The notes: generated from the sequence alone by a model not told the origin. DNA of 61,116 nt, filler included, from Stramenopiles sp. TOSAG23-6 (GCA_900128565.1; 4 parts of 4 records of this genome joined end to end with filler, not necessarily neighbours in it); one strand, 5' to 3'. Counted from the first letter of the whole stretch, positions 1 through 37,036 are shown. Numbers and translations are program-made.

Positions 1-494
1 GATGACATTTTATAAGTTTGTTTGAGTTGTTCTGCTTGTTCTTCTTCTTCTTCTTCTTCTTCATCATCATCATCATCTTCTTCTGATTCTTCTTCTTCAT
101 CATCATCATCATCATCTTCTTCTTCTTCTTCTTCTTCTCCGGCTTCTTCTTCTGATTCATCATCATCATAATCATCTGAATCATAGAAAACGGAATTATC
201 AACTGCATTTACGGCATCATCTGAACCATAGAAACCGAAATTATCAACTGCACGTACGGAAACAGGAGAAACATCTTCTCTTGGACTGTTAGGAGGAGCT
301 TGCCGACCTGAAATCCTAGCCTTCTTTGAAACTCTTCCCAACTGCGTTGATATACTTAGACGGAGACGGCCCCCACCACCCGCCTCACCAGGTCGCTGAC
401 GTTTTGGCGAAGATCGGGGTGAAGAAGCGTTGGTTAAATAAACCAGGCATAGCATGACGACAAGACATTTAACAGTGTGATATCCGATAGTCAT
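1..494 (-). CDS. Secreted-type protein with Asp/Glu-rich tract, 3'-partial (mirror copy 14775-15268 +)
   Basis: Hydrophobic N-terminus CLVVMLCLVYLTNA, GAA/GAT repeat tract, runs off the contig end. Confidence 0.6.
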   Translation of the reverse strand, partial: MTIGYHTVKCLVVMLCLVYLTNASSPRSSPKRQRPGEAGGGGRLRLSISTQLGRVSKKARISGRQAPPNSPREDVSPVSVRAVDNFGFYGSDDAVNAVDNSVFYDSDDYDDDESEEEAGEEEEEEEDDDDDDEEEESEEDDDDDEEEEEEEEQAEQLKQTYKMS

Positions 495-936
495 TCTTGA
501 TATAATTTAGACTTTTAGAACTCAATACGTGCAAGGATATCCTCTTATTCAATCGAAAGAAGTGGAGTTTTGTGCGCACTTAGATAGGTTTACTGTGTCG
601 AGAGTCTTCAATGAAATCTGGTCAGGTAGTTCCTGCGAGTTCCTGCGAGTTCCTGGTCAGGTGAGATCCTTGTGCTGACTCGCTTACTTGTGTTACCCGG
701 TCCTGTTTAGTTATAGGAGGTTTTTCGTGGGTTTTCGGAGACAAAAAATTGATTGGTCGAGAGGAGGAGGATTGGATTGTCGAAAAAAAACACAATTACT
801 AGCTAGTATTTTTCTAGTTGCTTGAGCAACATTTCCTTTGATTTACAAGACGAGGAATAAAACAAAAGCACACAACTTGTAAACTGTACGCCACTATCGC
901 TCTCTCTCGATTCAACTTGTATTCAATTCGAATATA

Positions 937-3123
937 ATGAAAGTAATGATTATGCTTACTCTTGTAAGTATAATAACGTTGCACGTTGATGCTGAAACCA
1001 TCCACGAAGGCTTCAACGACGACAGCAACGTTCTGAAAAAATCAAAAGAGGCATTCGACAAAGCTGTGGATAAAGTCTCTCAACAACAACAACGAGAAGC
1101 AAAACAGATGGAAATGAAAGATTTGCATTATGTTCACAGCTTGTGTGTCACTGACATTCCTGAAGAGGATTGTAAAACAAACGAAAGAAACGATGCTTAC
1201 ACAGACTACGAGGCGATATCTGATTCGTGGTGGGTAAACAAAAAAGATAAAGCCTTCAAAGCAGCAAATTTCATTAAACGTAAAGTAAAGGAAGAACTTC
1301 TTCAGTATCATTGGGAAAAAGTAGCCATGGAAAAGCGACCCGGAGGAATCACTGAAGAAAACAATCCCTTGTATAATTGCTTACTTATTAGTCTCTTCTT
1401 TGACAGTGACGACGATGGAGAAGAAGAAGGTCCTGATATAGTCTTAGAGAAATTGCCGCCTCCTGAGGAATACAAAGAGGGGGAAAATATATCCGAAATC
1501 GAAGAATTGAAAAGACGCAACTTTAGTCGAAAGTTGGATAAAATAATTGATGAACGATATCTGGAGTTACAATCTGAAGATCCACGAACGATCACACATT
1601 TCGAAAAATACGCAAAAAACTACGACAAAGATAAGTTCGAGAAAAAATATGGTATTAATTTCGGAGGCGGTATGACCTTTAAAACATTTTTGGGTCAATT
1701 AACAAAAACGTGGAGTGACGACAATGTCGAAAAGGCGAAAAGAAAAAGATCTGATAGTGGACTCAAAGGACTAGCGAAGCAAACAGTAAGTGAATTAGAG
1801 CTTACCCCAGACGAAGTATTAAAAGTAAAATTTTACATGAAAGAGTCAGGTTTGGATTTGGCTCAAGGAACACTTGATCTAATCACAAATTCAACATGGA
1901 AAGAAGTATTTAAAATGTGGCGGTCCGTAAGTCCATATACAGTGCCTGATTTTCGAGCAATATTTAACAGAAAAGTTGACGAAGAGTTCAGTCGATTGAA
2001 ACTTGCAAGACAAACCCCTAACGAGGATGCCAAATTATCAGCGGTAGCTGCATTCTCCAATGACAATTCTTATGGTGCTCAGTGGGAAAACTTTCTTGTT
2101 TCTCAACGAGAAAAAGAAAGACAAAAGGAGCTTGATGGCAAAACAACCGGGGATGAAAGAAGCATTCGTGAGAGACATGAAAATAGCGTCGAACTTACAC
2201 CAGAGGAAAGATTGAAATATTCTAAAACTGAAGAACAAATTCCGTTTCTTAAAACTTCAAACAAACCAATTCTTAAAGACAGAGATTTATCTGGAATGAC
2301 AGAGAAACAACAAGTCGAAGAAAAGAAATTCCGAGAANCAGTCAAAAAACTCAAAGTAATGGAAGATAACCGAAATCTTGCAGTGAAATATGCGTTCCAA
2401 ATTCAAGAACTTTCAAAACAAAAATCGACTCCTGAAATTGTAGAAGAAATCAGGAAAATTGTGGAAAAATTACGTCCACTTGCTGCGCAAACTTGGGCAT
2501 TATTAAATGCCAAAGAAAATGTTGAAGATTTACCAAAAGAACAAGAACGACTTGACAAAGCTCGAATGAACGATGAAGACGAAGAACCAATACATGTAGG
2601 ATGTGATGCCACAGAACAAATAATAGAAGGATATTCTGAAGTTGGATCCGATGATGATCGTCGTGATGCCCTAGAAGAAGCCGCCAAAACACTCTTTCAT
2701 CGTTTGCCTCGTTTCGGTTGTCGTTTTGAACTTGAAGCTAAGCGAGATCCTCCTGAATATTTCAAAGCTACCAGGGAGGAAGCGCAAAGATGCGGACAAT
2801 ATCCGACAGAACCTCCTTGTCATATTTGTGTGGACTTACTAAAGATGAAGACAAGATTAGATGGTCACTGGAAGCACATCGATATGCTACATCTTCATAA
2901 GAAGTTGCATGGTGCATGTGAGAATAGGAATAGTGGGTGGACATTTCATCCATGCACTCTACAATGTAAACCCCTCGAAGAAGCTAATAGATCCGTCAAT
3001 GCACATCGTTTCAAAAGTGAGCCTCATCATCATCATCATCATTACAAATCGTCTACAACCAAAGTGAAACATCATCACAAAAAGCACAAAACCTTACGAT
3101 CAAATGAAAATGATGAAATGTAG
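937..3123 (+). CDS. 728-aa hypothetical secreted protein, intron-less, Cys/His-rich C-terminus (mirror 12146-14332 -)
   Basis: Long ORF, signal-peptide-like MKVMIMLTLVSIITLHVDA, clear paralogy with the next gene. Confidence 0.8.
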   Translation: MKVMIMLTLVSIITLHVDAETIHEGFNDDSNVLKKSKEAFDKAVDKVSQQQQREAKQMEMKDLHYVHSLCVTDIPEEDCKTNERNDAYTDYEAISDSWWVNKKDKAFKAANFIKRKVKEELLQYHWEKVAMEKRPGGITEENNPLYNCLLISLFFDSDDDGEEEGPDIVLEKLPPPEEYKEGENISEIEELKRRNFSRKLDKIIDERYLELQSEDPRTITHFEKYAKNYDKDKFEKKYGINFGGGMTFKTFLGQLTKTWSDDNVEKAKRKRSDSGLKGLAKQTVSELELTPDEVLKVKFYMKESGLDLAQGTLDLITNSTWKEVFKMWRSVSPYTVPDFRAIFNRKVDEEFSRLKLARQTPNEDAKLSAVAAFSNDNSYGAQWENFLVSQREKERQKELDGKTTGDERSIRERHENSVELTPEERLKYSKTEEQIPFLKTSNKPILKDRDLSGMTEKQQVEEKKFREXVKKLKVMEDNRNLAVKYAFQIQELSKQKSTPEIVEEIRKIVEKLRPLAAQTWALLNAKENVEDLPKEQERLDKARMNDEDEEPIHVGCDATEQIIEGYSEVGSDDDRRDALEEAAKTLFHRLPRFGCRFELEAKRDPPEYFKATREEAQRCGQYPTEPPCHICVDLLKMKTRLDGHWKHIDMLHLHKKLHGACENRNSGWTFHPCTLQCKPLEEANRSVNAHRFKSEPHHHHHHYKSSTTKVKHHHKKHKTLRSNENDEM

Positions 3124-3558
3124 TAATGAAAATGGGATTTAGGTACGTAGTGTTGCACGTTTATATCATTGGATTCCATGGATACACCTTTAAGTACAAA
3201 GTTTTGGTACGTCTCTCATCAATTGATAGATACATTACAAATTCTAATAATGGGATAAAAAGGTCAATTAAACTGAGTTTGCTTTTTTATATTTCTTTAA
3301 AAAAAATAAAAACTTAGTTCTTTGTCTGAATCAACCACTTCAGTTGTGGAACATTCCTGTTTTTTTTCTCTCTCTCTACACCTCTCGACGAACTCGGAGA
3401 TTTTCGAGGCATTTTCGAGGAGACAATTTGGAAATTATTTATTTGACACACAATCAAATATTTCCCTTTGATTGTCCCTCTTGATTACTGATCTCAAGAA
3501 GGAGAAACACAAAAGCACACAACTTACTGTACGCCACTCTCAATTCCACTTGAATACA

Positions 3559-5545
3559 ATGAAAATAATGATTATGCGTACTCTTCTAAGTTTTATCATG
3601 TTGCAAGTTAATGCAGCTCGGGAAGGATCACGACCGGCCCTTGTAAACGTTGTTGACGAGATGAAGTTGAACGCTGATACTAAAACTGACAGCGTTGTTT
3701 TTGAAGGATCGGAAGAAGCCTTTGTAGAGGCTGTGCGTAAGCATTTTCCTGAAGGTCCTGAAGTTCCTGAAGTAGAGCGTGAAAAACAAACAAAACCGAT
3801 GGAAATGAGAGACTTGCATTACGTTCACAGTATGTGTGTTACACGTCAAATAGGATGCAAAGAAAACGATGCAGGGACAGACTACGAGGACATACCGATA
3901 GCGGATAAGTGGTGGGAAGTGACATCTCATGAGGTACATAAAAATGTAAAAGAATCCTTCATCAAATGGAAAGCAAAGCAAGAATTGCAAAGCTATGTTC
4001 ATGATTTTAAGGAGAATCAGAATCAGAATCAGTTTGAAGAGAAGATGCCGCTGCTTTTTATGTTCTCCCAGAGTAGTAGTAGTATTAGTAGTAGTAGTGA
4101 TATTAATGATATGGGTAAACGTAGTACTCTTGAGCAAGATAAATTTTTTGATCAGCAGTATAAAATACTCGAAAAGGCACAAATATATCATGATTACATG
4201 AAAACAATTGATGAAGTTTTGAATCAATTCGAAACATCTTATCACGATTGGAAAACATCCGCAACTGGCGGATTTTTGAGAGACTTTGACCCAGAATTAA
4301 AAACATCAATTTGGAAAGCAGACACAGAGAGGGCAGTCGATAATGAAAAATACCCAACCCCCACTCGGTCAACATTGATGCCTTATTTTTGTCAGCTAGA
4401 AATATTTACAAAAGATCCTGAAAATGCTGACTATGCTGTGTGTTTTGAATTCCTAGATCCTAAAAAAAGAAAAAGGATGGGAGCGATGGGAGAAGAGTGT
4501 GAATGTACAGGAGGAAAAAAGATTAAAACATGGAGGGAAATAAAACAGTTTATCTCAATGTTGGGTTTCACACCATATTGTTTTGATACCTTTGATGGTG
4601 ATAGAAAAAAAAAAGTCGACGAAAGATTTCAAAAAAAAAAGGAACAAATCAATTATATATTTGACAGCATAAAACAATATACAACTAAAAATATAGATTC
4701 CATGAAACATTTTATGAAACGAAACAAATTTACTTCATATGGTGATAAATGGGAAAACTTTTTACAGGATCGAAAAAAAGAGGATATGGGACAAGAAAAT
4801 GAAAAAGAAATATTTTTTTCTACAGAACTGTCTTTGGATGAAAGATGTACGTTTTCAAAATTAAATTTTTACCTAAATTTTTTTCATAGGAAATTTTGTA
4901 CCTAATGAATTTCAAGTGTAAATAATGTTCACTACACATTGAAATATTCGAAAAATCTAGAAAACAATCAAATTAAATTTCGGAATGGTGGAGACAAATC
5001 AGTTCTAAAAAACAATGTATATGTAGGGATGTCAATAAAAGACAGGAAAGAAGAAGAGGAATTCCAAGAATCTGTCACTGAACTCAAACAGATGGAAGAT
5101 GTACGTTTTCATCATATATTTTGAATATTTATTTAGTACGAAATCTTGTACCTAACGATTTTTTTTTCTTACTAAAAAAAAAAAAAAAAAAAATTTTTTT
5201 CAAAAAAATACTAATCTTGCAGTAAAGTACGCGATGCGTGTGAATGAACTTTTAAAAAAAGAAGCAACTCCTGAAATAGTCCAAGAACTCGATAGCATCG
5301 TGGAAAAATTACGTCCTCTTGTTGCGCAAAATTGGGCATTATTAAATGTCGAAAAAAATGTACGTTTTTATACTGAATTTCAAATTTAGTTTTTTTTTTC
5401 ATACGAAATTTCGTACCTAACGATTTTTTTATTTCTACATTTTTCACACACATCACATGTTGGAGATTTACCAAAGGAAGTTCAACGACTTGAAAATGCT
5501 CGAAATGAAGGTAAAGACAATAATCCAGAAAAAAAGAATGTGTGA
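3559..5545 (+). CDS. Paralogue of the 728-aa protein; exons 3559-4846, 4940-5100, 5207-5359, 5459-5545 (mirror 9722-11710 -)
   Basis: Shared blocks MEMxDLHYVHSxCVT, SYGxxWENFL, ERLKYSK, MEDNxNLAVKYA, IVEKLRPLxAQxWALLN; removing three introns restores colinearity. Confidence 0.8.
4847..4939 (+). mobile_element. Introner-like intron GT...AT, flanking repeat AT
   Basis: GAA AGA T|gtacg...ctacacat|TG AAA gives ERLK as in the paralogue. Confidence 0.85.
5101..5206 (+). mobile_element. Introner-like intron GT...AT (3' end cleaner in mirror copy 10061-10168 -)
   Basis: GAA GAT|gtacg...cacaaagtat|AAT ACT gives MEDNTNL versus paralogue MEDNRNL. Confidence 0.8.
5360..5458 (+). mobile_element. Introner-like intron GT...AT
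   Basis: AAA AAT|gtacg...catcacat|GTT GGA gives NVGDLPKE versus paralogue NVEDLPKE. Confidence 0.85.
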
Positions 5546-5657
5546 AGAGTACGGTTATAATATTGGTAGAAGTTAGGGTTAGGTTTATAATCTCAAAAGT
5601 ATTCAATAAAAATGGATTTTCGTTTCGCATAAAATTTTATGTTTGCGACATTCCTAG

Positions 5658-5674
5658 TAACCCTAACCCTAACC
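5658..5674 (+). promoter_or_regulatory. Interstitial telomere-like (telo-box-like) motif upstream of the nitrilase gene
   Basis: TAACCCTAACCCTAACC about 130 nt before the ATG. Confidence 0.4.
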
Positions 5675-5800
5675 TTCATGTCACTCGAAATTGACCTGTG
5701 TCTTGACATCACTCGTTCAACCATTTTCACTTTCTTACAAGAATCGTACAAAGAGATTTAGATTAGATTATAGTATTAGTAAATACCAGTACAAACAAAA

Positions 5801-7586
5801 ATGAAGGTTGCATTATGCCAACCGAAGCGTCGTTTACATTCAACGATTGAAGACTCAATAAGCGATCTCGTTGGTTTCGCAAAGCGAGCTCATGCTCAAA
5901 GTGCTGATCTTTTATTACTTCCTGAATTGTTCTTAGGAGGTTATTTGTGTTTTAGAGAGATGTCCCAAAGGGCAGTCTCAGTATATCCTCTCAGCAAAGA
6001 GCTTTCCCGTGTTGGCGAGATTGCTAAAGAATGTCAAGTGGCAATTTGTCTAGGGTATACAGAAGTAGATGATGCGGGGAACTTTTTTAATAGTTGTGGT
6101 CTATTCGATGTAGATGGAAAATTGATTGGAAATTATCGAAAGACTCATCTATTCGGGAAAAGAGAGAAAGCTGTATTCAAATCAGGTGATGTTTTAGGCG
6201 AAGTATTTTGTGTTGCTGGAACAAAAGTGTCCATGCTTATATGTTATGACATTGATTTCCCAGAAGCTGTTCGAAAATGTGTTGTTAATGGAGCAACTTG
6301 TATTTTAATACCAACAGCTAATTTCAAACCATATAACTGTACGTACGCATTCAAAATTGAATTTTTAAACTAAATATTTTTCGTACGAAATTCTGTACCT
6401 AACGATTTTTTTTTTTAACGAAAAAAAAAAAAATAATATTTTTTCACAATACCTTTATCAATAAAAATGTTGTTCCTGTGAGAGCATTAGAGAATCATGT
6501 TTCAATATGCTATTGTAATTGGGCAGAATTTATTGATGAAGATGGTACTGAGATGAATGGAATGTCAAGTATTTGTTCAGGCAATGGAATGAAAATTATA
6601 GAATTTTTTGAGGGAGATAAAGAAGATTTGAAAATTGCGTCAATTCCTAACCCTAACCCTAAGCATCTTACTACAGACGAAGATGATTATCTACGCGATC
6701 GTAGATTAGATTTATATACAACTAACCGAGAATTATCGGATTTATCAGATAGTGAAATGCATGAGTTGTGTAAAAAAATCCCAAAATGTGAATTACATAC
6801 TCATTTGACTGGTTCAATTAGACCTGCAACTCTTCAAGAATTTTGTAATATAAAAATAAAGGCAGGTTTGTTACCAAATGATTGTCTAAAATGTTTAAAA
6901 AATGAAAATTGGGAGGATGCATTTGGAATATTTTGGTTAATTAATAAATCTGTCGATAATTTGGACAAAGTACGACGTTTAACAAAAGAGGCCATTGAAG
7001 ATATGAGAGACTGTGGCGTTGTATACTGTGAATTTCGTGTAGGTTTAAAGCCAATGCCAACGAAAGAAGATTATATCAAGACTCTCATTGATGTGATTGA
7101 AGCAGAAACAATGTCAAGTACAGGAAGTGCAACAAACATTACGATAAAATTACTCGTATCCGTCGCTCGTCATGGAGATGTATGTTTTCATTTTTTTTTT
7201 TTCAAAATTTGAATTTTTTTTCGTACGAAATTTTGTACCTAACGATTTTTTTAAGATTTTTTAAAAAATATTTTTTCAAATTCGAATTTTTTTTCGTACG
7301 AAATGTTGTACCTAACGATTTTTTTAAGATTTTTTTTTAAATATTTTTCCAAAATACATGTTCCGTACGCATCAGAGAGTGTTGATATTGCTATTGATTA
7401 TTTTACCAACTCTGAAAAAGGAAAGGGAATTGTTGTTGGTATTGAACTGGGTGGAATTCCTAAAAAAGGTCATTTTAAAACATTTCTTCCTTTATTTGAA
7501 AGAGCACGAAAAGCTGGATTAAAAACATCTCTTCATTTCGCTGAAAATTTAAGTGATGCAATCGAAGTGGAAGAAGAACAAAATTT
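5801..7586 (+). CDS. Carbon-nitrogen hydrolase (nitrilase family) fused to adenosine deaminase-like domain, 3'-truncated; exons 5801-6338, 6455-7179, 7360-7586 (mirror 7681-9466 -)
   Basis: LPELF, YRKTHLF, LICYDIDFPE, PTAN, VRALEN, then PKCELHTHLTGSIR, VVYCEFR, VVGIELGG, SLHFAE. Confidence 0.88.
6339..6454 (+). mobile_element. Introner-like intron GT...CT, flanking repeat CT
   Basis: TAT AAC T|gtacg...cacaatacct|TT ATC restores PYNFINKNVVPVRALEN. Confidence 0.85.
7180..7359 (+). mobile_element. Introner-like intron GT...AT with duplicated core
   Basis: GGA GAT|gtatg...aaaatacat|GTT CCG; two hairpin+CTAAC cores. Confidence 0.85.
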
Positions 7587-7613
7587 GTACATTTTCATCA
7601 TTACTTTCAATTT

Positions 7614-7633
<20 letters not shown>
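7587..7633 (+). mobile_element. 5' part of an introner-like intron cut by the palindrome centre
   Basis: AAT TT|gtacattttc then poly-T. Confidence 0.65.
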
Positions 7634-7653
<20 letters not shown>

Positions 7654-10600
7654 AAATTGAAAGTAATGATGAAAATGTACAAATTTTGTTCTTCTTCCAC
7701 TTCGATTGCATCACTTAAATTTTCAGCGAAATGAAGAGATGTTTTTAATCCAGCTTTTCGTGCTCTTTCAAATAAAGGAAGAAATGTTTTAAAATGACCT
7801 TTTTTAGGAATTCCACCCAGTTCAATACCAACAACAATTCCCTTTCCTTTTTCAGAGTTGGTAAAATAATCAATAGCAATATCAACACTCTCTGATGCGT
7901 ACGGAACATGTATTTTGGAAAAATATTTAAAAAAAAATCTTAAAAAAATCGTTAGGTACAACATTTCGTACGAAAAAAAATTCGAATTTGAAAAAATATT
8001 TTTTAAAAAATCTTAAAAAAATCGTTAGGTACAAAATTTCGTACGAAAAAAAATTCAAATTTTGAAAAAAAAAAAATGAAAACATACATCTCCATGACGA
8101 GCGACGGATACGAGTAATTTTATCGTAATGTTTGTTGCACTTCCTGTACTTGACATTGTTTCTGCTTCAATCACATCAATGAGAGTCTTGATATAATCTT
8201 CTTTCGTTGGCATTGGCTTTAAACCTACACGAAATTCACAGTATACAACGCCACAGTCTCTCATATCTTCAATGGCCTCTTTTGTTAAACGTCGTACTTT
8301 GTCCAAATTATCGACAGATTTATTAATTAACCAAAATATTCCAAATGCATCCTCCCAATTTTCATTTTTTAAACATTTTAGACAATCATTTGGTAACAAA
8401 CCTGCCTTTATTTTTATATTACAAAATTCTTGAAGAGTTGCAGGTCTAATTGAACCAGTCAAATGAGTATGTAATTCACATTTTGGGATTTTTTTACACA
8501 ACTCATGCATTTCACTATCTGATAAATCCGATAATTCTCGGTTAGTTGTATATAAATCTAATCTACGATCGCGTAGATAATCATCTTCGTCTGTAGTAAG
8601 ATGCTTAGGGTTAGGGTTAGGAATTGACGCAATTTTCAAATCTTCTTTATCTCCCTCAAAAAATTCTATAATTTTCATTCCATTGCCTGAACAAATACTT
8701 GACATTCCATTCATCTCAGTACCATCTTCATCAATAAATTCTGCCCAATTACAATAGCATATTGAAACATGATTCTCTAATGCTCTCACAGGAACAACAT
8801 TTTTATTGATAAAGGTATTGTGAAAAAATATTATTTTTTTTTTTTTCGTTAAAAAAAAAAATCGTTAGGTACAGAATTTCGTACGAAAAATATTTAGTTT
8901 AAAAATTCAATTTTGAATGCGTACGTACAGTTATATGGTTTGAAATTAGCTGTTGGTATTAAAATACAAGTTGCTCCATTAACAACACATTTTCGAACAG
9001 CTTCTGGGAAATCAATGTCATAACATATAAGCATGGACACTTTTGTTCCAGCAACACAAAATACTTCGCCTAAAACATCACCTGATTTGAATACAGCTTT
9101 CTCTCTTTTCCCGAATAGATGAGTCTTTCGATAATTTCCAATCAATTTTCCATCTACATCGAATAGACCACAACTATTAAAAAAGTTCCCCGCATCATCT
9201 ACTTCTGTATACCCTAGACAAATTGCCACTTGACATTCTTTAGCAATCTCGCCAACACGGGAAAGCTCTTTGCTGAGAGGATATACTGAGACTGCCCTTT
9301 GGGACATCTCTCTAAAACACAAATAACCTCCTAAGAACAATTCAGGAAGTAATAAAAGATCAGCACTTTGAGCATGAGCTCGCTTTGCGAAACCAACGAG
9401 ATCGCTTATTGAGTCTTCAATCGTTGAATGTAAACGACGCTTCGGTTGGCATAATGCAACCTTCATTTTTGTTTGTACTGGTATTTACTAATACTATAAT
9501 CTAATCTAAATCTCTTTGTACGATTCTTGTAAGAAAGTGAAAATGGTTGAACGAGTGATGTCAAGACACAGGTCAATTTCGAGTGACATGAAGGTTAGGG
9601 TTAGGGTTACTAGGAATGTCGCAAACATAAAATTTTATGCGAAACGAAAATCCATTTTTATTGAATACTTTTGAGATTATAAACCTAACCCTAACTTCTA
9701 CCAATATTATAACCGTACTCTTCACACATTCTTTTTTTCTGGATTATTGTCTTTACCTTCATTTCGAGCATTTTCAAGTCGTTGAACTTCCTTTGGTAAA
9801 TCTCCAACATGTGATGTGTGTGAAAAATGTAGAAATAAAAAAATCGTTAGGTACGAAATTTCGTATGAAAAAAAAAACTAAATTTGAAATTCAGTATAAA
9901 AACGTACATTTTTTTCGACATTTAATAATGCCCAATTTTGCGCAACAAGAGGACGTAATTTTTCCACGATGCTATCGAGTTCTTGGACTATTTCAGGAGT
10001 TGCTTCTTTTTTTAAAAGTTCATTCACACGCATCGCGTACTTTACTGCAAGATTAGTATTATACTTTGTGAAAAAATATTTTTTTTTTTTTTTTTTGTAA
10101 GAAAAAAAAATCGTTAGGTACAAGATTTCGTACTAAATAAATATTCAAAATATATGATGAAAACGTACATCTTCCATCTGTTTGAGTTCAGTGACAGATT
10201 CTTGGAATTCCTCTTCTTCTTTCCTGTCTTTTATTGACATCCCTACATATACATTGTTTTTTAGAACTGATTTGTCTCCACCATTCCGAAATTTAATTTG
10301 ATTGTTTTCTAGATTTTTCGAATATTTCAATGTGTAGTGAACATTATTTACACTTGAAATTCATTAGGTACAAAATTTCCTATGAAAAAAATTTAGGTAA
10401 AAATTTAATTTTGAAAACGTACATCTTTCATCCAAAGACAGTTCTGTAGAAAAAAATATTTCTTTTTCATTTTCTTGTCCCATATCCTCTTTTTTTCGAT
10501 CCTGTAAAAAGTTTTCCCATTTATCACCATATGAAGTAAATTTGTTTCGTTTCATAAAATGTTTCATGGAATCTATATTTTTAGTTGTATATTGTTTTAT

Positions 10601-13600
10601 GCTGTCAAATATATAATTGATTTGTTCCTTTTTTTTTTGAAATCTTTCGTCGACTTTTTTTTTTCTATCACCATCAAAGGTATCAAAACAATATGGTGTG
10701 AAACCCAACATTGAGATAAACTGTTTTATTTCCCTCCATGTTTTAATCTTTTTTCCTCCTGTACATTCACACTCTTCTCCCATCGCTCCCATCCTTTTTC
10801 TTTTTTTAGGATCTAGGAATTCAAAACACACAGCATAGTCAGCATTTTCAGGATCTTTTGTAAATATTTCTAGCTGACAAAAATAAGGCATCAATGTTGA
10901 CCGAGTGGGGGTTGGGTATTTTTCATTATCGACTGCCCTCTCTGTGTCTGCTTTCCAAATTGATGTTTTTAATTCTGGGTCAAAGTCTCTCAAAAATCCG
11001 CCAGTTGCGGATGTTTTCCAATCGTGATAAGATGTTTCGAATTGATTCAAAACTTCATCAATTGTTTTCATGTAATCATGATATATTTGTGCCTTTTCGA
11101 GTATTTTATACTGCTGATCAAAAAATTTATCTTGCTCAAGAGTACTACGTTTACCCATATCATTAATATCACTACTACTACTAATACTACTACTACTCTG
11201 GGAGAACATAAAAAGCAGCGGCATCTTCTCTTCAAACTGATTCTGATTCTGATTCTCCTTAAAATCATGAACATAGCTTTGCAATTCTTGCTTTGCTTTC
11301 CATTTGATGAAGGATTCTTTTACATTTTTATGTACCTCATGAGATGTCACTTCCCACCACTTATCCGCTATCGGTATGTCCTCGTAGTCTGTCCCTGCAT
11401 CGTTTTCTTTGCATCCTATTTGACGTGTAACACACATACTGTGAACGTAATGCAAGTCTCTCATTTCCATCGGTTTTGTTTGTTTTTCACGCTCTACTTC
11501 AGGAACTTCAGGACCTTCAGGAAAATGCTTACGCACAGCCTCTACAAAGGCTTCTTCCGATCCTTCAAAAACAACGCTGTCAGTTTTAGTATCAGCGTTC
11601 AACTTCATCTCGTCAACAACGTTTACAAGGGCCGGTCGTGATCCTTCCCGAGCTGCATTAACTTGCAACATGATAAAACTTAGAAGAGTACGCATAATCA
11701 TTATTTTCATTGTATTCAAGTGGAATTGAGAGTGGCGTACAGTAAGTTGTGTGCTTTTGTGTTTCTCCTTCTTGAGATCAGTAATCAAGAGGGACAATCA
11801 AAGGGAAATATTTGATTGTGTGTCAAATAAATAATTTCCAAATTGTCTCCTCGAAAATGCCTCGAAAATCTCCGAGTTCGTCGAGAGGTGTAGAGAGAGA
11901 GAAAAAAAACAGGAATGTTCCACAACTGAAGTGGTTGATTCAGACAAAGAACTAAGTTTTTATTTTTTTTAAAGAAATATAAAAAAGCAAACTCAGTTTA
12001 ATTGACCTTTTTATCCCATTATTAGAATTTGTAATGTATCTATCAATTGATGAGAGACGTACCAAAACTTTGTACTTAAAGGTGTATCCATGGAATCCAA
12101 TGATATAAACGTGCAACACTACGTACCTAAATCCCATTTTCATTACTACATTTCATCATTTTCATTTGATCGTAAGGTTTTGTGCTTTTTGTGATGATGT
12201 TTCACTTTGGTTGTAGACGATTTGTAATGATGATGATGATGATGAGGCTCACTTTTGAAACGATGTGCATTGACGGATCTATTAGCTTCTTCGAGGGGTT
12301 TACATTGTAGAGTGCATGGATGAAATGTCCACCCACTATTCCTATTCTCACATGCACCATGCAACTTCTTATGAAGATGTAGCATATCGATGTGCTTCCA
12401 GTGACCATCTAATCTTGTCTTCATCTTTAGTAAGTCCACACAAATATGACAAGGAGGTTCTGTCGGATATTGTCCGCATCTTTGCGCTTCCTCCCTGGTA
12501 GCTTTGAAATATTCAGGAGGATCTCGCTTAGCTTCAAGTTCAAAACGACAACCGAAACGAGGCAAACGATGAAAGAGTGTTTTGGCGGCTTCTTCTAGGG
12601 CATCACGACGATCATCATCGGATCCAACTTCAGAATATCCTTCTATTATTTGTTCTGTGGCATCACATCCTACATGTATTGGTTCTTCGTCTTCATCGTT
12701 CATTCGAGCTTTGTCAAGTCGTTCTTGTTCTTTTGGTAAATCTTCAACATTTTCTTTGGCATTTAATAATGCCCAAGTTTGCGCAGCAAGTGGACGTAAT
12801 TTTTCCACAATTTTCCTGATTTCTTCTACAATTTCAGGAGTCGATTTTTGTTTTGAAAGTTCTTGAATTTGGAACGCATATTTCACTGCAAGATTTCGGT
12901 TATCTTCCATTACTTTGAGTTTTTTGACTGNTTCTCGGAATTTCTTTTCTTCGACTTGTTGTTTCTCTGTCATTCCAGATAAATCTCTGTCTTTAAGAAT
13001 TGGTTTGTTTGAAGTTTTAAGAAACGGAATTTGTTCTTCAGTTTTAGAATATTTCAATCTTTCCTCTGGTGTAAGTTCGACGCTATTTTCATGTCTCTCA
13101 CGAATGCTTCTTTCATCCCCGGTTGTTTTGCCATCAAGCTCCTTTTGTCTTTCTTTTTCTCGTTGAGAAACAAGAAAGTTTTCCCACTGAGCACCATAAG
13201 AATTGTCATTGGAGAATGCAGCTACCGCTGATAATTTGGCATCCTCGTTAGGGGTTTGTCTTGCAAGTTTCAATCGACTGAACTCTTCGTCAACTTTTCT
13301 GTTAAATATTGCTCGAAAATCAGGCACTGTATATGGACTTACGGACCGCCACATTTTAAATACTTCTTTCCATGTTGAATTTGTGATTAGATCAAGTGTT
13401 CCTTGAGCCAAATCCAAACCTGACTCTTTCATGTAAAATTTTACTTTTAATACTTCGTCTGGGGTAAGCTCTAATTCACTTACTGTTTGCTTCGCTAGTC
13501 CTTTGAGTCCACTATCAGATCTTTTTCTTTTCGCCTTTTCGACATTGTCGTCACTCCACGTTTTTGTTAATTGACCCAAAAATGTTTTAAAGGTCATACC

Positions 13601-15268
13601 GCCTCCGAAATTAATACCATATTTTTTCTCGAACTTATCTTTGTCGTAGTTTTTTGCGTATTTTTCGAAATGTGTGATCGTTCGTGGATCTTCAGATTGT
13701 AACTCCAGATATCGTTCATCAATTATTTTATCCAACTTTCGACTAAAGTTGCGTCTTTTCAATTCTTCGATTTCGGATATATTTTCCCCCTCTTTGTATT
13801 CCTCAGGAGGCGGCAATTTCTCTAAGACTATATCAGGACCTTCTTCTTCTCCATCGTCGTCACTGTCAAAGAAGAGACTAATAAGTAAGCAATTATACAA
13901 GGGATTGTTTTCTTCAGTGATTCCTCCGGGTCGCTTTTCCATGGCTACTTTTTCCCAATGATACTGAAGAAGTTCTTCCTTTACTTTACGTTTAATGAAA
14001 TTTGCTGCTTTGAAGGCTTTATCTTTTTTGTTTACCCACCACGAATCAGATATCGCCTCGTAGTCTGTGTAAGCATCGTTTCTTTCGTTTGTTTTACAAT
14101 CCTCTTCAGGAATGTCAGTGACACACAAGCTGTGAACATAATGCAAATCTTTCATTTCCATCTGTTTTGCTTCTCGTTGTTGTTGTTGAGAGACTTTATC
14201 CACAGCTTTGTCGAATGCCTCTTTTGATTTTTTCAGAACGTTGCTGTCGTCGTTGAAGCCTTCGTGGATGGTTTCAGCATCAACGTGCAACGTTATTATA
14301 CTTACAAGAGTAAGCATAATCATTACTTTCATTATATTCGAATTGAATACAAGTTGAATCGAGAGAGAGCGATAGTGGCGTACAGTTTACAAGTTGTGTG
14401 CTTTTGTTTTATTCCTCGTCTTGTAAATCAAAGGAAATGTTGCTCAAGCAACTAGAAAAATACTAGCTAGTAATTGTGTTTTTTTTCGACAATCCAATCC
14501 TCCTCCTCTCGACCAATCAATTTTTTGTCTCCGAAAACCCACGAAAAACCTCCTATAACTAAACAGGACCGGGTAACACAAGTAAGCGAGTCAGCACAAG
14601 GATCTCACCTGACCAGGAACTCGCAGGAACTCGCAGGAACTACCTGACCAGATTTCATTGAAGACTCTCGACACAGTAAACCTATCTAAGTGCGCACAAA
14701 ACTCCACTTCTTTCGATTGAATAAGAGGATATCCTTGCACGTATTGAGTTCTAAAAGTCTAAATTATATCAAGAATGACTATCGGATATCACACTGTTAA
14801 ATGTCTTGTCGTCATGCTATGCCTGGTTTATTTAACCAACGCTTCTTCACCCCGATCTTCGCCAAAACGTCAGCGACCTGGTGAGGCGGGTGGTGGGGGC
14901 CGTCTCCGTCTAAGTATATCAACGCAGTTGGGAAGAGTTTCAAAGAAGGCTAGGATTTCAGGTCGGCAAGCTCCTCCTAACAGTCCAAGAGAAGATGTTT
15001 CTCCTGTTTCCGTACGTGCAGTTGATAATTTCGGTTTCTATGGTTCAGATGATGCCGTAAATGCAGTTGATAATTCCGTTTTCTATGATTCAGATGATTA
15101 TGATGATGATGAATCAGAAGAAGAAGCCGGAGAAGAAGAAGAAGAAGAAGAAGATGATGATGATGATGATGAAGAAGAAGAATCAGAAGAAGATGATGAT
15201 GATGATGAAGAAGAAGAAGAAGAAGAAGAACAAGCAGAACAACTCAAACAAACTTATAAAATGTCATC

Positions 15269-15368
15269 NNNNNNNNNNNNNNNNNNNNNNNNNNNNNNNN
15301 NNNNNNNNNNNNTTAATTAATTAANNNNNNNNNNNNNNNNNNNNNNNNNNNNNNNNNNNNNNNNNNNN
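15269..15368. other. Artificial contig linker
   Basis: N44-TTAATTAATTAA-N44, stops in all frames. Confidence 0.98.
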
Positions 15369-15370
15369 CT

Positions 15371-18300
15371 ACAGGTTCATCTGATGATATTTCAGGTGAA
15401 ATTTCAATAGCCACAGGACAATCAAAGGTAGCTGGAGAAATTAATATAAATGCAGGTACTACAACTGGTGGACCTGGTGGAGATGTATTACTTACGTCTG
15501 GCGATTCAACTTCTCAAACCGGTGGTCACACAATAATTGCTTCAGGTGTAAGTACAAACGGGGCAGGTGGCGACGTCCATATTAGAATACAGGGGACAAA
15601 ATTAGTTAATAATGATAATATGTTAATCGTTAAGACCGGTCAAAATCCCCAAGGACAAAGTGGAAATGTATTACTACAGTTGGGCCACTCAACAAGCCAC
15701 GGAAGAACCAGTGGTAATATTAGTATTAAAAATGGTGATTCCGAAAATAGTCTTGGCAGTTCCGTCCACATTACAGCAGGTACTGGAAATACAGGAAATG
15801 GTGGATCTGCGTCAATAAATGCTAGTCATAGCACCAAAAAAATAGGAGGTATGATTCAATTCAAAAGTGGTGGTGGTTCGTCAAACGTAGTCGACTCTTT
15901 AATAATTTCTACTGGTGCTGAGGAAATTGGCGATAGCGGATCAGCAACTATTAAATCAGGAAATGGGAGTCTTACAGGCAACGTAGAACTTAAGGTTGGC
16001 GGAACAATCGATGGGACGGGTGGTTCAATTTCTATTCACGGAGGCAATGGAAGTGGAGATGGTGGCCTACTTAGCTTCGAAGCTGGAATGACAGAATCTG
16101 GAGGTGGAGGTGATATCAAATTTTCTGCTGGTTCAAAAGCGCATTTAAAACTAGTATCCGCTACCAGTCAGTTGAAAGGCAGCAGATCTGGAGATTTATT
16201 TGCTCGTAGTGGTGTTAGTCATAGTGGTGAATCTGGAAATGTAGAAATTACCTCAGGATCAGAAAGGATGGCTTCTGAGGAACTTGTTGCAATTCATGTT
16301 GCACCTGGAACTGCATCCACCGACAATGGGGGGTCGATACGATTCAAGTCTGGGACGACTTCAAATGGTGTTGGAGGATCTGTTGATGTAACGTCTGGTC
16401 TTGGATATCGAAGCGGTACTGTTTCACTCGTTAGTTCAGCAAAATTACCGGGTGACTATCGCAGCGGTGGGATTTCATTAATGGTCACAGACTCTGATGC
16501 ATACTCAATGGGAACGGATAAAACCATGATGGCAAGTTCAGTAGAAATAGTGTCAGGTTCTTCGGAATATGAAAACCCTGGTACAATTGAATTGACAGCA
16601 GGAGATGGTCGAATAAATGCGGGTTCAGTAAGTATAAATGCTGGTGTCTCTAATATGGATAATAATTTATCCAATGATCTTCTTTTTCCAGACCGTGGTG
16701 GGAATTTACATTTTACAGCTGGTCATCTTGGTGAAGTGAATGTCAAAAGTTCTAAAAGTTTCTCATCTGGTAATATCAAATTATCCAGTGGTCAATCAGT
16801 GTCAAAACAAAGCGGAGATTTTGAAATTGTAACTGGAAATAATTATAATCATGGCAATACCGGGCGAATTTACATTTCATCAGGGATTTCTGTAGATGGA
16901 AATAATTCTGTATCAATATTGGGTGGTTTATCTTCAGATTCCAAAGGTGCTGATTTGAAAATCTCTGGAGGTCATACAAGAAAAAATCAACGATCAAATG
17001 AAATGAACGACACTGGAGGGGGCATTCATCTTGATACGGGTATTAGTTCGAATGCTGTAAGCGGAAATGCTTCTATTATGTCATTTTATTCTATTGATTC
17101 TAATAGTGGTGAGTTGTTTCTTGGTTCAGGAAATACGACGAGTGTCGAAAAATCATCTAATATTATTGTAATGAGCGGTGAGGCTAAGACCACTGGTTCT
17201 GTCAATCTTGAGACCGGTTCGAGTGCAAAAACAAGTGGAAATATTCACATTTCTAGTGGGGAAAAAGCAAATAACAATCAAGGCAATACAGGTAATACAA
17301 CTTTTTCAACTGGTGATGCACTTCAAGGTACAGTGGGATCGATTAAGATTTCTCTTGGTTTGAGTAATAAAGAAATCCCGTCGAAGATAAAAATTCAAAG
17401 TGGACACAATTCAAATAGTGGTAGTATTCGGGTATCAACTGCAAATGATCTAGAATCATCAGGAGAAATTTCATTCGTTGTGGGGTCGTCGGATAAGTCA
17501 AATGCAGTGCAAGATATACCGGATATAGTTTTATTATCGTCTGGTACAAGTAAACATGGAATATCAGGCAACTTAACTATTTCTTCAGGAAATTCAGCAA
17601 AGACTGTTGGTGTTGTAAGTGTCACTGCTGGTTCTTTTTCGAGAAGCTTCTCTGGCGCATACAATGATGTAAGTCGCAGAGGAGGTAGTGTTGAAATTAA
17701 TTCTGGGTTTTCTACTAACGATGATGCGAGCAATGTAAAAATCACATCAGCAATTGGTTTTAAATCTGGTGACATCACGATTGGGTCAGGAATAAGTGGT
17801 AATAAAACAGGAGAAGTGCTACTTGAGTCCGGTGTAGCTTATAACAATGCTGGAAATGTACATGTTCTTGCTGCTAATAATAAACTTGGTAATGGTGGCC
17901 AAATTGATATTTCTGCTGGAAATTCGCATACTGGGAAAGCTGGAGGTCTGATATTGAGTTCAGGTGTCGCTCACAATTCAGCTCAAAATGGAAATATGCT
18001 GTTGGCTACAGCTAATGGAAGAATTTCAGGCAATGTTTACCTGGTATCCGGAAATTCAACATCTAGTTCATCTGGAAGCATATCAATTAAATCTGGCCCA
18101 GTTTTGTCGAACGGGGTAGGTGGTCAAGTGGTGCTTTCAGTTGGGAACACGACTGCTATTGAAAATGAAAAAAATGGTAGAGGTATATACATAACATCGG
18201 GAAAAGGTGTCTCAGGCGGAAACATTCATATAAAAGCTGGTGGTTATAAGAAGGAAGTGCTACACAACCTACCAACTGATGTCATGCCAGAAAAAGAGAA

Positions 18301-21300
18301 TATCTTTGGAGGAATTTTGTCTCTCACAGCAGGTGATGTTGAGACCGGATCTTTTGGTGGAGATCTGACAGTCACAACTGGGGATTCTAAGGGTGAAGTT
18401 TCTGGAGGTCAGGTTGCAATATCATCAAGCGCTTCTACAAGAATAACAGGAGTGATACATCTCACAACTGGCGACTCCGCAAAATCAACAACTAGTGCTA
18501 CCTCTCTATATTCTGGTAAAGCAACTGACGGAAGTTCTGGAGAAATATCACTATATAGTGGTACAGCAAGTAATGGATCAAGTGGTGGTGTATATATATA
18601 CCCGGGGTCTAGCAAACAAACTAGAGGTCAAGCTGTCCGAATAAAAAGTGGCACCAGCACAAATACATCTAGTGGGAAAATCACAATATCCTCACAAAGT
18701 GATGGCAATCTCAATATACAAACAGGAGTAAGTTCAAATGGTAATACTGGGAATGTTTCATTTTCAACTGGAGAATCAAAGAAGGGCTCTCCAGGCTCTG
18801 TATTTTTCCATGTTGGCAAAAATAATGAAAGTAACATTGAATCTGATAGTCATTTGCTTGGCAGTGAGATTTTTCTTGAAGCTGGTGGAAGTATTGAAAG
18901 ACAAGGTGGAAGTGTTGAAATTAACGCAGGCGACGGTGCTACTACTGCAGGGGGGGGTAATGTGATTCTCGCCGGTGGGGATGGAGGAACTGGTGGTTCT
19001 GTTATATTGTCAACAAGTTCAGGAAATAGCATATCAAGCGGAAATCTTCAGATAGGGAGCAACGATTCTTATCAATATGGGAGAAGTGGATCATTAGTAT
19101 TATCTAGCGGCAAATCTACCCAAGGTAACTCTGGTTACATTTTAGTTGAAAGTGGACATACGGAAGGCGGGGCTGGCGGAAATTTTGACATGAAACTAGG
19201 TTACGGCGACATGGGTCCTGGAAAACAGATTCATCTTAGAGCTGGGTTTAGTGAAAGTAAAAATGGTGGTTGGCTACAGTTGGAAGGTGGTAAAAGTAAT
19301 GGTGCTTGGAGAGAAGGTGGGGGCATACACATTGCTGCAAGGGAAGGATACAAAGGTGGCGGAGTAGTAATACAAGGCGGATCAAGCTTACTTACTTCAA
19401 GCGGGGATATCAAAATTGCCGTTATGAATTCAGGGATCCTTGGAATGAGTGGAAGTATGACTTTATCAACGGGGACTTCATCAATGGGGTCTTCAGGAAA
19501 TATGATGCTTTCAACGGGTGTTCCTAAGTTCGGAGGCGGTGGAGATATAAGACTGGCCGTCGGGGACACATTGGGTATCGGAGAAGGCAAAGCTGACGGA
19601 GGTCGTGTGAGTATTTTTGCTGGGAGTTCTGTCGATGCTCAAAAGTCTGGTGGATCGGTGAGTATCACTGGAGGTAAAGGTGCACATTATACAGACGGCA
19701 TAGGTGGTTCGATTATTCTAAGTGCTGGTGATGGACACGCTTATAAGGGTGGAAATGTTTCTGTAGTAAGTGGGAGCAGTGTTTCTACGTCCAGTGGACA
19801 GGTTATTATGAAATCTTTGGATTCAGGGGATGATGGGGTAAGTGGTTCAGTTGTGTTTTCCACTGGAACATCTAGTATGAAAACTACAGGCTCACTTACA
19901 TTCGACACCGGTGAATCATATCAAGGTGGTGCTGGAGATATCAGAGTTCAGGTTGGGGCTGGTGCTTCTGGGGGTCTAGTTGGTTTTAAAGCTGGCGAGA
20001 GTACTCAGTTGTATGGGGCAACTACTGGGGGGTCAGTTTCCATCACCTCTGGATACGGAATGGTTTCATCAAGTGGTGCATTTACTCTGAAAAGTGGCCG
20101 AAGTGGTCCAAATGGAGGAAGCGGTATTGTCACATTTACATCGGGGACAACAAGTGCTGGTAGCACTGGTGCAATTGCGATTAAATCGGGTGAAGCAGCT
20201 TTAGGCACAGCTGGAAGTGTAAACATTGTTATTGCAAATGCTGATACTAAATCAGGCGGGCGTCTTATGATACAAGGTGGAGAAAGTGTAGATATAGGTG
20301 GGACGGTCATTATTCTTCCTGGTGCTGGACGAAGTAGTTCGAGTGGATTATTTAGTATAAAATCCGCAGATGGTGCAAGTGGAAATTCTGGACAACTTAC
20401 ATTTGCTACTGGTACAACAAGTGCCGGTAATAGCGGATACATCTTTATGCGTTCAGGAAATTCGGAAAGATTTAGTGGGAGTGTGAGTGTTACAGTTGGT
20501 AGTGGTCTTGGGAAAAATGGTGGCAATCTTTTAATGAGTAGCGGTCAGAGTTCAATAAGTACGGGTGGTTCTCTTTCAATGATCACTGGTTTTAGTCGCA
20601 ATAAAAATAGCGGGGCAACATTTATTCGCTCAAGCAACTCTGGAATAAATGGTACAAGTGGCGGACTGCAGATTTCAACAAATACTTCAACCGTTGGTAG
20701 TACCGGTTCAATATTGATGCGTTCAGGAAATTCTACATTGGGTACGGCTGGTAGTGTCAGTGTAGTAGTGGGAAGTGGTTCACATGGAAGTGGAGGAAGT
20801 CTGAAAGTAACATCAGGTCTGAGTGATATTCAAACAGGTGGGGCTATTTCTATCGTGTCGGGATTTGGGTCTATAACATCAAGTGGTTCTTTCAGTATCA
20901 AATCTGCTGGTGCTGTCGATGTTGATGCGATATCAGGGTCAAATAGCGGCATCGTATCACTTTCATCTGGGGCAAGTAATAATGGAAGTACTGGTAATAT
21001 TATCCTTCAGACTGGGCTTGCTTCTTTTGGGAGCGCTGGTCAAATAAATATTTATGCTGGTTCAGGAAATGTTGCTACTGGTGGTCATGTCATTATTAGT
21101 AGCGGAAATAGCAAAGATCTTGATCTTGTTACAGGCGGATCAATATCACTCGTTAGCGGCTATGGATCAACTTCATCAAGCGGGTCGTTCAGTTTAAAGT
21201 CTGGAAACTCAGGAAGTTTGATGGACTACCCTAACTCATTCGGTAACAGTGGTAAATTATCATTTATTTCTGGGTCTTCGCTCAACGGTTCAAGTGGCAC

Positions 21301-30300: not shown

Positions 30301-30562
30301 CTCAATACGCACTTCTGACATTGATGGTAATGGTGTATCCGGGCCTTTATCATTTACAACAGGAACCTCAAAAAATGGTAGGAGTGGTTCCTTCATTTTA
30401 CGTACAAGAAGATCTATTTTGGGCACTGCTGGGAGCATCAGCGTTGTCGTTGGAAGTGGAAAATCATCCGCAGGTGGGCGAATTGTATTACATGCAGGGG
30501 AAAGTACAAATTCGAGAGGAGGGACAATGTCAATCATAAGTGGGTATGGCAAAATAACATCT
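15371..30562 (+). CDS. Giant Gly/Ser/Thr-rich repeat protein (>5000 aa), partial at both ends, intron-free
   Basis: Frame is open from contig start to end; about 15-aa repeats of the form G-x-hydrophobic-x-hydrophobic-x-[ST]-G. Confidence 0.9.
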
Positions 30563-30662: not shown

Positions 30663-30748
30663 TTTCAAAAAAAAATCTAAAAAAATTGTTAGGTACAAAA
30701 TTTCGTACGAAAAAAAATTTTTAGAATTTGAAAAAAAATAAAACATAC

Positions 30749-37029: not shown

Positions 37030-37036
37030 ACTAACC

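Follow-up and report, generated by a model that had tools for sequence, protein, structure and literature searches.

How did three short interruptions come to lie in one member of a tandem gene pair and to be missing from the other? The question is raised by a 61,116-base stretch of DNA from Stramenopiles sp. TOSAG23-6 (GCA_900128565.1), the whole of which was analysed and is called the window below. In it gene A, an uninterrupted open reading frame (ORF) of 728 amino acids (aa), is followed head-to-tail by its paralogue, gene B (3559-5545, plus strand), whose start lies 435 nucleotides (nt) past the stop codon of A. The initial annotation had proposed that A supplies the empty sites of three insertions that entered B after a DNA-level duplication, with 2 base pairs (bp) duplicated at each of them. 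We found that the three inserts of B, termed e1, e2 and e3, belong to a family of AT-rich sequences, mostly of ~90-120 nt, which is the source of every definable intron in B and in five other genes of the window, that most copies repeat at their 3' end the two bases standing before them, and that the homologous positions in A are empty. Taken as a whole, the best explanation, which we hold to be moderately probable, is an introner-like family that duplicates 2 bp of its target and from which B gained its introns.

Occupied sites in gene B and empty sites in gene A

The A and B proteins align from the first methionine to the end of B, with 193 of 499 aligned positions identical (38.7%); B lacks the final ~175 residues of A, and there is no space for them ahead of the next gene. 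Read unspliced, B meets a stop at codon 449, and removal of the three inserts (coordinates of these and the other features are collected in Table 1) leaves an open frame of 561 aa. Every insert has AT in front of it and AT as its final two bases, and the matching site in A consists of a single AT. In B, ATGTACGTTTT begins at 4845, 5099 and 5358, and the inserts close with CACTACAC-AT (4939), CAAAAAA-AT (5209) and CATCAC-AT (5458); in A, the strings quoted in the initial annotation are in place and start exactly at 2206, 2359 and 2516. Across the junctions, the proteins read DER/LKYSK in B and EER/LKYSK in A at the first, MED/TNLAVKYA in B and MEDNRNLAVKYA in A at the second, and EKN/VGDLPKE in B and KEN/VEDLPKE in A at the third. 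As A is one codon longer at the second junction (MEDNRNLAV versus MED-TNLAV), homology there holds only to within a codon; with this qualification, the arrangement of AT-element-AT in B against one AT in A is present at all three sites.

The initial annotation had also claimed that the paralogue fixes the spliced sequence, which is true of e1 and e3 and does not extend to e2. For the first and third inserts, the paralogue together with the open frame permits only the removal of the element plus one AT: each GT..AG end of e1 leads to an immediate stop, and an AG end for e3 at 5476 is in frame but drops VGDLPK, which is conserved in A. The second insert is ambiguous by one codon (end at 5209 or 5206), and an AG end at 5227 is also in frame but drops TNLAVK; relative to A, the three changes in NLAVK are all synonymous, and its loss is the only argument against the 5227 end. 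Under the rule of removing the element with one AT, the 132 codons after e1 are open, which occurred in 0 of 20,000 shuffles, and 10 stops interrupt each of the other two frames.

Homology between the 5' flanks of A and B, likewise reported in the initial annotation, is real but short, being made up of two exact blocks of 17 and 13 nt: ACAAAAGCACACAACTT at 862-878 and 3509-3525, and ACTGTACGCCACT at 883-895 and 3526-3538. The blocks stand 42-75 nt from the ATG in A and 21-50 nt in B, upstream of them the alignment is at noise level, and elsewhere in the window both sequences occur only in mirror copies. A second A/B pair (9725-14332, minus strand) is the mirror image of the first within a palindromic contig, so that it provides neither independent data nor a further copy. 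A tblastn search for a third family member in the window and in L001, a public metagenome contig that carries one more copy of the element, gave only A, B and the mirror copies. No Pfam family matched gene A, no relatives of it were found by a word-indexed protein search or a HMMER scan of 1.84 billion representatives, none of 69 pattern matches in metagenome contigs was confirmed by tblastn, and its last 260 residues had no usable match in the protein atlas.

An element family ending in a two-base flank repeat

Allowing up to 3 mismatches, the 16-nt core GTACCTAACGATTTTT has 27 occurrences in the window, counting the mirror arms, versus 0.96 expected. An nhmmer profile built from 12 copies located ~26 distinct sites, counted after merging opposite-strand echoes of the palindromic core and two-part matches, in pieces 1, 3 and 4 of the four pieces that form the window, and none in piece 2. 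When public metagenome contigs were scanned for the 21-nt core, one contig, L001, was returned, in which the profile likewise located one copy; viral contigs and prokaryote genome contigs gave no match, and Rfam none in the window. The curated set comprises 21 complete copies (20 from the window and the one from L001), which have lengths of 89-180 nt and can be aligned from one end to the other.

The element is laid out as GTAYGTTTTC, an A/T stretch that varies and is often similar to CAAAATTGAAT, a T-run, the core motif GTACGAAATTTYGTACCTAAC, an A/T-rich filler that often closes with GAAATATTTTT, then CACAATAC and two bases, the 3' block TTTTTCACAATAC sitting just before those final 2 nt. The 5' end is GTAYGT in 15/21 copies and GT in 20/21, and the 3' end is AT in 18 copies and CT, TT and AG in one each, i.e., it differs from AG in 20/21. 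CTAAC within the core is branch-site-like; a CTRAY can be recognised in 19 copies, and in these the distance between the branch-like A and the end is 32-81 nt (median 38). The copy at 7180-7359 contains an internal tandem duplication of 73 nt (7198-7343), with 90% identity between its two parts, and has for this reason two cores and two branch-like motifs. Sub-types can also be distinguished: TTTTTACCTAAA before the T-run is common to e1, 47181-47280 and 46367-46512, and the first two of these, which are 83% identical across 93 alignment columns, 7 of them with gaps, additionally share GAATTTCAA after the core. Such a spread of sub-types over unrelated genes is what a copying process would produce. 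The homology runs through the spacer segments, and the sub-type motifs have no obvious splicing role. Introns of unrelated genes are homologous over their full length, which is a mark of introners. Two partial or diverged copies, at 51453-51495 (minus) and 51555-51650 (plus), lie opposed to each other between the stop codons of two convergent genes, in 3' untranslated or intergenic DNA outside coding sequence; the profile match to the second of them covers 51555-51609.

In 18 of the 21 curated copies, the last two bases equal the two bases before the element: fifteen are AT/AT, and CT/CT, AG/AG and TT/TT occur once each. When 3' dinucleotides were shuffled among copies, 18 matches were reached in 0.07% of 500,000 permutations (p = 0.0007), control offsets gave 0, 0 and 3 matches, and leaving out the two copies with doubtful ends (46870-47036 and 52016-52117) gave 16/19, by tally from the curated table. 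The three exceptions are TT/AT (twice) and CT/AT (once). Because AT dominates on both sides, the non-AT copies are the informative ones, and the CT, AG and TT 3' ends each repeat their own left flank, a pattern not expected from a fixed splice-site consensus. AT accounts for 15/21 left flanks and for 8% of the dinucleotides of gene A, so that the target or exon-side context is strongly biased; G directly follows the intron in 11/21 copies, and the repeat therefore often reaches ATG, and on the left side a third base matches in 5/21. There is good support for a 2-bp target duplication throughout the family, beyond the A/B pair from which the initial annotation had proposed it. A Helitron-like insertion between A and T without duplication was rejected, as it would need element ends that co-vary with their sites in the CT, AG and TT copies.

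The case for splicing is built on reading frames and domain continuity. In a frame test over plus or minus 120 nt around 16 copies, nine allow only a removal up to the 3' block plus 2 nt (modulo 3), three allow it among others, two are unscorable owing to a short neighbouring exon, one is uninformative and one (46870-47036) contradicts it; this test is invalid beside short exons, and the Ldh_2-like gene was assessed by exon chains instead. Exon chains built by the same rule are open through the contig-3 gene (two introns), the PhyH-like gene and the Ldh_2-like gene, the last taking in a 32-nt exon that encodes GNGYKGYCLG. In the gene combining CN_hydrolase and A_deaminase domains, exon 2 carries the A_deaminase profile up to position 136 at its end and exon 3 takes the profile up again from ~134, and in the Ldh_2-like gene profile positions 180-223 and 267-323 flank two small exons. 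As domain continuity is restored in the CN_hydrolase/A_deaminase, PhyH and Ldh_2 genes, the family appears to be removed from transcripts as a rule. Removal would most simply read GT...(AC)XY, or its slid equivalent XY-GT...AC, where XY is AT in 18/21 copies and AG once. In one further place, at 52660-52762 (minus strand, approximate ends), a strongly diverged intron-like stretch with CTAAC present and a 5' end other than GT parts a 346-codon upstream ORF from the Ldh_2-like exons.

RNA structure does not appear to join the intron ends: nine introns that were folded have weak predicted structures, with z between +0.14 and -2.30, and no minimum-energy structure among them joins the first and last bases beyond 3-5 bp. 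The only recurrent fold is a short central hairpin formed by the palindrome GTACGAAATTTCGTAC, and we also rejected this as a conserved RNA hairpin, since substitutions break it in 12/20 copies, none of them compensatory; they fall mostly in the 5' half, TTYGTACCTAAC being nearly constant. Broken without compensation, the palindrome resembles sequence inherited with the element more than a stem that the RNA needs. Ciliate-type DNA elimination was rejected as well, given that the flanks are not TA, that long ORFs are present in the standard code and that the signals are classical and splice-like.

We propose that the interruptions of B would be copies of a short, AT-rich, non-coding mobile-element family serving, in the manner of introners, as the intron type of this organism. 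Each copy would bring a 5'-splice-site-like GTAYGT, a T-run, GTACGAAATTTYGTACCTAAC with its branch-like CTAAC, and TTTTTCACAATAC plus two bases, these final two being the target-site duplication made on insertion. Removing the element with one copy of the repeat would restore the frame, with an RNA intron of GT...(AC)AT or AT...AC, and the 3' end would be set by the end of the element and the duplicated target, not by AG. Gene A would have kept the three target ATs empty, following a tandem DNA duplication and three separate insertions into B. Of this account, the existence of the family, the repeated flanks, the restored frames and the empty sites in the paralogue are shown, whereas splicing from RNA, insertion by transposition and gain in B are inferred.

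Direction of change and competing explanations

A gain of three introns in B is, in our judgement, likely, on the strength of the tandem arrangement and of the family-wide evidence for insertion. The head-to-tail order of A and B together with the conserved upstream block fits unequal crossing-over. Every intron in the six genes is a copy of the family, mostly with an intact flank repeat, which suggests that insertion prevails here. The claim of the initial annotation that the three insertions followed a DNA-level duplication is plausible and unproven, because a target that was never occupied and a site in A whose intron was exactly lost would both show one AT, so that the empty sites do not settle between gain and loss. 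A loss would require introns older than the A/B duplication, or than the last homogenisation of the 3' part, that were removed precisely from A in one event through a spliced cDNA of A or B. We consider this somewhat unlikely. All three sites fall next to one another in a stretch of A of under 310 nt, and a single event of cDNA recombination removes three adjacent introns where gain needs three events; gene A is moreover intron-free across 2.2 kb, but long intron-free stretches are common in this DNA (a 689-aa Ulp1 ORF, a 1994-aa ORF and the first 1288 nt of B). The tandem layout and the conserved upstream block suit a duplication at the DNA level, although the block lies near enough to the ATG to be part of a transcribed leader and is thereby also compatible with an RNA-mediated route. 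The B copies are as near to the family profile as other copies (39.9-52.0 bits), a weak point since they are part of that profile. Finally, insertion appears to be frequent in this genome, and no evidence of any loss was seen.

Divergence between A and B also bears on this loss. Synonymous divergence (dS) is saturated at ~2 over 374 codons of exon 1 and only 0.38 over the 123 codons after e1, i.e., it is much lower in the intron-bearing part. At identical residues, the codon differs in 45/114 cases in exon 1 and in 11/65 after e1, with ~0.55 expected at saturation, and DNA identity between the genes is uneven, falling from 0.72-0.76 at the start to 0.35-0.47 in the middle and reaching 0.76-0.79 over the last 80 codons. 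This unevenness suggests partial gene conversion or region-specific constraint, and the intron-bearing third of the pair may have been either more constrained at the DNA level or later homogenised. The low dS hints at gene conversion exactly where the introns lie, and conversion of that stretch of A by a spliced cDNA would explain the similarity and the missing introns together.

Several further observations weigh against the proposed explanation. The ratio of nonsynonymous to synonymous divergence (dN/dS) after e1 is 0.88, so that B may be weakly constrained, and the one-codon mismatch between A and B at the second junction weakens the observation made there. Pairwise identity among copies averages 0.84, barely above the 0.78 plus or minus 0.05 of shuffled AT-rich controls, and dating of the inserts by pairwise identity was rejected for this reason. 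A Pfam scan of ORFs and exons over the ~46 kb of unique sequence revealed no credible transposase domain and no autonomous partner was seen, the sole match to a transposase family being Tnp_DNA_bind in one 48-aa exon at an E value of 0.1, below its cut-off. Inverted repeats at the termini are limited to GTAT(G)T / ACA(A)TAC, with ~6 imperfect pairs at most. All three copies without a flank repeat end in AT, and AT may therefore in part be a feature of the element or of splicing. One composite copy, 46870-47036, needs 165 and not 167 nt removed to join NLIDA to NRAEDGG; it looks like two elements in one, and an assembly indel could equally explain the figure.

That the AT...AT arrangement might be a lineage-specific splice consensus (exon AT, GTAYGT...ACAT, exon, or an AT-AC type), the likeness among copies being due to long splicing signals, appears quite unlikely. 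Such a consensus would be suited by the fact that the major spliceosome can accept the A1/C-1 terminal pair of AT-AC introns, as it would by the frequency of AT on the left flank (15/21) and at the 3' end (18/21) and by its retention at the 3' end of all three copies without a repeat. The non-AT 3' ends, however, match their own left flanks, as quantified above by permutation, and splicing signals do not account for homology through spacers and in sub-type motifs, nor for the copies that lie between convergent genes. The 5' half of the palindrome varies freely and its hairpin is often broken, so that sequence demands do not explain why this half is conserved in the other copies. A decaying B, in which the elements would be ordinary transposon insertions into a pseudogene, with nothing spliced and no intron gained, is in our view very unlikely. 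The missing C-terminal residues and the dN/dS after the first insert agree with decay, but the unspliced frame ends early, the 132 codons that follow e1 stay open once the inserts are removed, a result that no shuffle reproduced, and the same elements occur in the CN_hydrolase/A_deaminase, PhyH and Ldh_2 genes, where their removal restores domain continuity.

Known intron types and the surroundings of the family

Introners are described as transposon-derived introns whose target duplications take part in the junction and which are widespread in aquatic protists (PMC12130899; Gozashti et al. 2022, bioRxiv). The elements proposed here would share with the introners of Micromonas pusilla, Aureococcus anophagefferens and a wider range of eukaryotes a hundred-nt scale, a non-coding and multi-copy nature and the creation of introns on insertion (PMC12130899, PMC7789003), as well as the carriage of part of the splicing signals, a flanking target-site duplication within the splice junction (here the 2-nt repeat in 18/21 copies) and an association with aquatic protists. 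Such families are described as having canonical GT-AG ends, direct repeats of constant length and terminal inverted repeats (PMC7789003). In contrast, copies here start with GT in 20/21 cases and end with AG in 1/21, the repeat is 2 nt long, the inverted termini are imperfect and at most ~6 nt, and one family makes up every definable intron in six genes. The mechanism of introner action was reportedly treated by Huff et al. in 2016.

Other non-canonical introns of protists are alike in some respects. The introner elements of Amoebophrya are described as having direct repeats of 3-5 nt, inverted repeats of 8-20 nt that pair the ends, and many families and end motifs (Farhat et al. 2021, PMC7789003). 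The likeness lies in repeated marine-protist introns without GT-AG ends, in short direct repeats over the borders, and in a transposon-like spread that was proposed with no transposase evident (PMC7789003). The present family differs in its conserved GTAYGT, its strong CTAAC, a repeat of 2 nt and the lack of predicted end-to-end pairing; repeats of 3-5 nt combined with inverted repeats of 8-20 nt were not found. Nonconventional introns of euglenids and introns of hemistasiids are described as having variable non-AG borders and a junction made 'slidable' by short direct repeats, with an origin proposed from sequences resembling MITEs (miniature transposable elements with inverted repeats) (PMC12501133, PMC6221363, PMC12621601). 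In the same accounts, the euglenid nonconventional introns have no 5' end complementary to U1 and need a stable structure to join their ends, hemistasiid intron ends are G+C-rich (PMC12621601), and intermediate introns are conventional at the 5' end and unconventional at the 3' end (PMC3935182). Non-AG borders and short direct border repeats (18/21) are common to these introns and ours, whereas the ends here are A+T-rich, GTAYGT opens 15/21 copies, so that the 5' border is conserved, and folds are weak, with no stable end-joining structure. For uncultured marine diplonemids, single-cell work by Gawryluk et al. (2016) predicted, as described by citing papers, abundant non-canonical introns without transcript data; a connection with that group is a possible lead taken from those citing papers.

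If the cut is placed 2 nt leftward, most copies would read AT...AC, as in U12-type AT-AC introns, and TACCTAAC resembles the branch consensus of that type. The U12 branch consensus is TCCTTAAC. Unlike U12 AT-AC introns, the copies have no ATATCC 5' motif, their branch-like motif lies 32-81 nt from the end and not 10-20, and the CT, AG and TT copies are unreadable as AT-AC; we therefore rejected a U12 type on the 5' (AT)GTAYGT and on branch distance.

The family would be of a kind already known, the introners, and stands apart from the non-canonical cases above in that GTAYGT and CTAAC occur together with a repeat of 2 nt, ends rich in A+T, a lack of pairing between these ends and a 3' terminus of AT in most copies. 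The origin of new introns is a long-standing question, and transposon-like introners are its best-documented source. We would put forward, as a tentative and still doubtful suggestion, that nearly the whole intron complement of this genome derives from one ~100-nt mobile element whose 2-bp duplication provides the last two intron bases, that the 3' site is chosen independently of AG by a 'ruler' measured from TTTTTCACAATAC plus 2 nt, taking AT, CT, TT and AG alike, and that A and B display three gains caught in the act. If true, this would join an AG-independent choice of the 3' splice site to an otherwise classical GTAYGT / CTAAC intron and, if confirmed by transcripts, would offer a natural test of the way in which a 3' site is selected by the spliceosome when AG is lacking. 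The A/B pair contributes three precisely defined occupied and unoccupied sites; the wider picture of a one-element intron complement, with non-AG 3' ends tied to target duplication, would be of greater interest than the pair itself, and gene finders expecting GT-AG would break nearly every gene of the genome.

Table 1 Positions of genes, sites, inserts and assembly features in the window (flanks are given as left dinucleotide/last dinucleotide of the element)
Feature	Position	Strand	Remarks
Conserved upstream block of A	862-895	+	17-nt and 13-nt exact matches to B, 4-nt indel between
Gene A	937-3123	+	uninterrupted 728-aa ORF; signal-peptide-like start; Cys-/His-rich C-terminus
Unoccupied site 1 in A	2211-2212	+	one AT in GAAAG-AT-TGAAA; GAAAGATTGAAA from 2206
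Unoccupied site 2 in A	2366-2367	+	one AT in GGAAG-AT-AAC; ATGGAAGATAA from 2359; A one codon longer than B
Unoccupied site 3 in A	2519-2520	+	one AT in GAAA-AT-GTTG; AAAATGTTGAAG from 2516
Conserved upstream block of B	3509-3538	+	
Gene B exon 1	3559-4846	+	
Insert/intron e1	4847-4939	+	93 nt; AT/AT; sub-type with extra TTTTTACCTAAA
Gene B exon 2	4940-5100	+	
Insert/intron e2	5101-5209	+	109 nt; AT/AT; 3' block degenerate; alternative 3' end 5206 possible
Gene B exon 3	5210-5359	+	
Insert/intron e3	5360-5458	+	99 nt; AT/AT
Gene B exon 4 and stop codon	5459-5545	+	
Family intron	6339-6454	+	CN-hydrolase/adenosine-deaminase gene; CT/CT
Family intron	7180-7359	+	CN-hydrolase/adenosine-deaminase gene; AT/AT
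Mirror arm of palindromic contig 1	7634-15268	none	A, B and inserts repeated on minus strand; read as artefact
Spacers	15269-15368, 30563-30662, 45857-45956		N44-TTAATTAATTAA-N44; stop in all six frames
Family intron	35772-35872	+	AT/AT
Family intron	36221-36330	+	AT/AT; 5' end GAAAGT instead of GT
Family intron	46154-46245	+	PhyH-like gene; AG/AG; only copy readable as canonical GT-AG
Family intron	46367-46512	+	TT/AT, no repeat
Family intron	46651-46739	+	AT/AT
Composite family intron	46870-47036	+	AT/AT; frame needs 165 nt removed, not 167
Family intron	47181-47280	+	AT/AT
Family intron	47422-47514	+	TT/TT
Family intron	51122-51211	+	TT/AT, no repeat
Family intron	51717-51840	-	Ldh_2-like gene; AT/AT
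Family intron	52016-52117	-	AT/AT; 3' end set by reading frame, not an independent repeat test
Diverged family intron	52237-52353	-	AT/AT
Composite family intron	52386-52506	-	CT/AT, no repeat
Family intron	53779-53868	-	AT/AT; frame test uninformative
Family intron	60849-60949	-	AT/AT

The window is made up of four pieces of ~15.2 kb each, joined by the three spacers, and features are never to be read across these joints. Pieces 1 (1-15268) and 3 (30663-45856) are perfect palindromes whose arms abut directly and are 99-100% complementary, with centres at 7633/7634 and 38259/38260; each pivot falls within an intron element, in its long T-run (T23|A23 and A8|T8). We read the two palindromic pieces as assembly or amplification artefacts, probably caused by strand-switching at homopolymers in amplification or assembly. 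The unique sequence comprises 1-7633, 15369-30562, 30663-38259 and 45957-61116, ~46 kb altogether. Pfam families matched on its ORFs are typical of eukaryotes (Ulp1 protease, SPRY, CN_hydrolase with A_deaminase, PhyH and Ldh_2), the protein atlas places the Ulp1 domain no more closely than in Eukaryota, and three seawater metagenome runs share 5-18% of the words of the stretch.

Piece 2 (15369-30562) is a single open frame from end to end (5097 codons, open on both sides), built of ~273-nt repeats with at least 29 copies of a 68-nt reference unit; it has a G+C content of 43-45%, a strong skew of G over C and no intron element. Because its composition is unlike that of the other three contigs, it may come from another organism.

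Next to B, 5801-7633 is one gene in which exon 1 carries CN_hydrolase and exons 2-3 carry A_deaminase, exon 2 bridging both, an apparent fusion of nitrilase-superfamily and adenosine-deaminase parts; a search for longer relatives of the bridging exon 2 found none. In the PhyH-like gene (46008-47660), the exons between family introns measure 146, 121, 138, 130, 144 and 141 nt, and together with the internal exons of B (161 and 150 nt) they are close to nucleosome size. An insertion preference for linker DNA is reported for other introners, and these exon sizes recall it. Inverted telomere-like repeats (TTAGGGTTAGG ... AACCCTAACCCTAACC) stand just past the stop codons of B (5573-5583 and 5659-5674) and of the L001 gene (~2275-2335), and a CCCTAA-like stretch lies near the 3' end of the PhyH-like gene (47655-47672); the telomere-like repeats may be a 3'-end signal or another small element.

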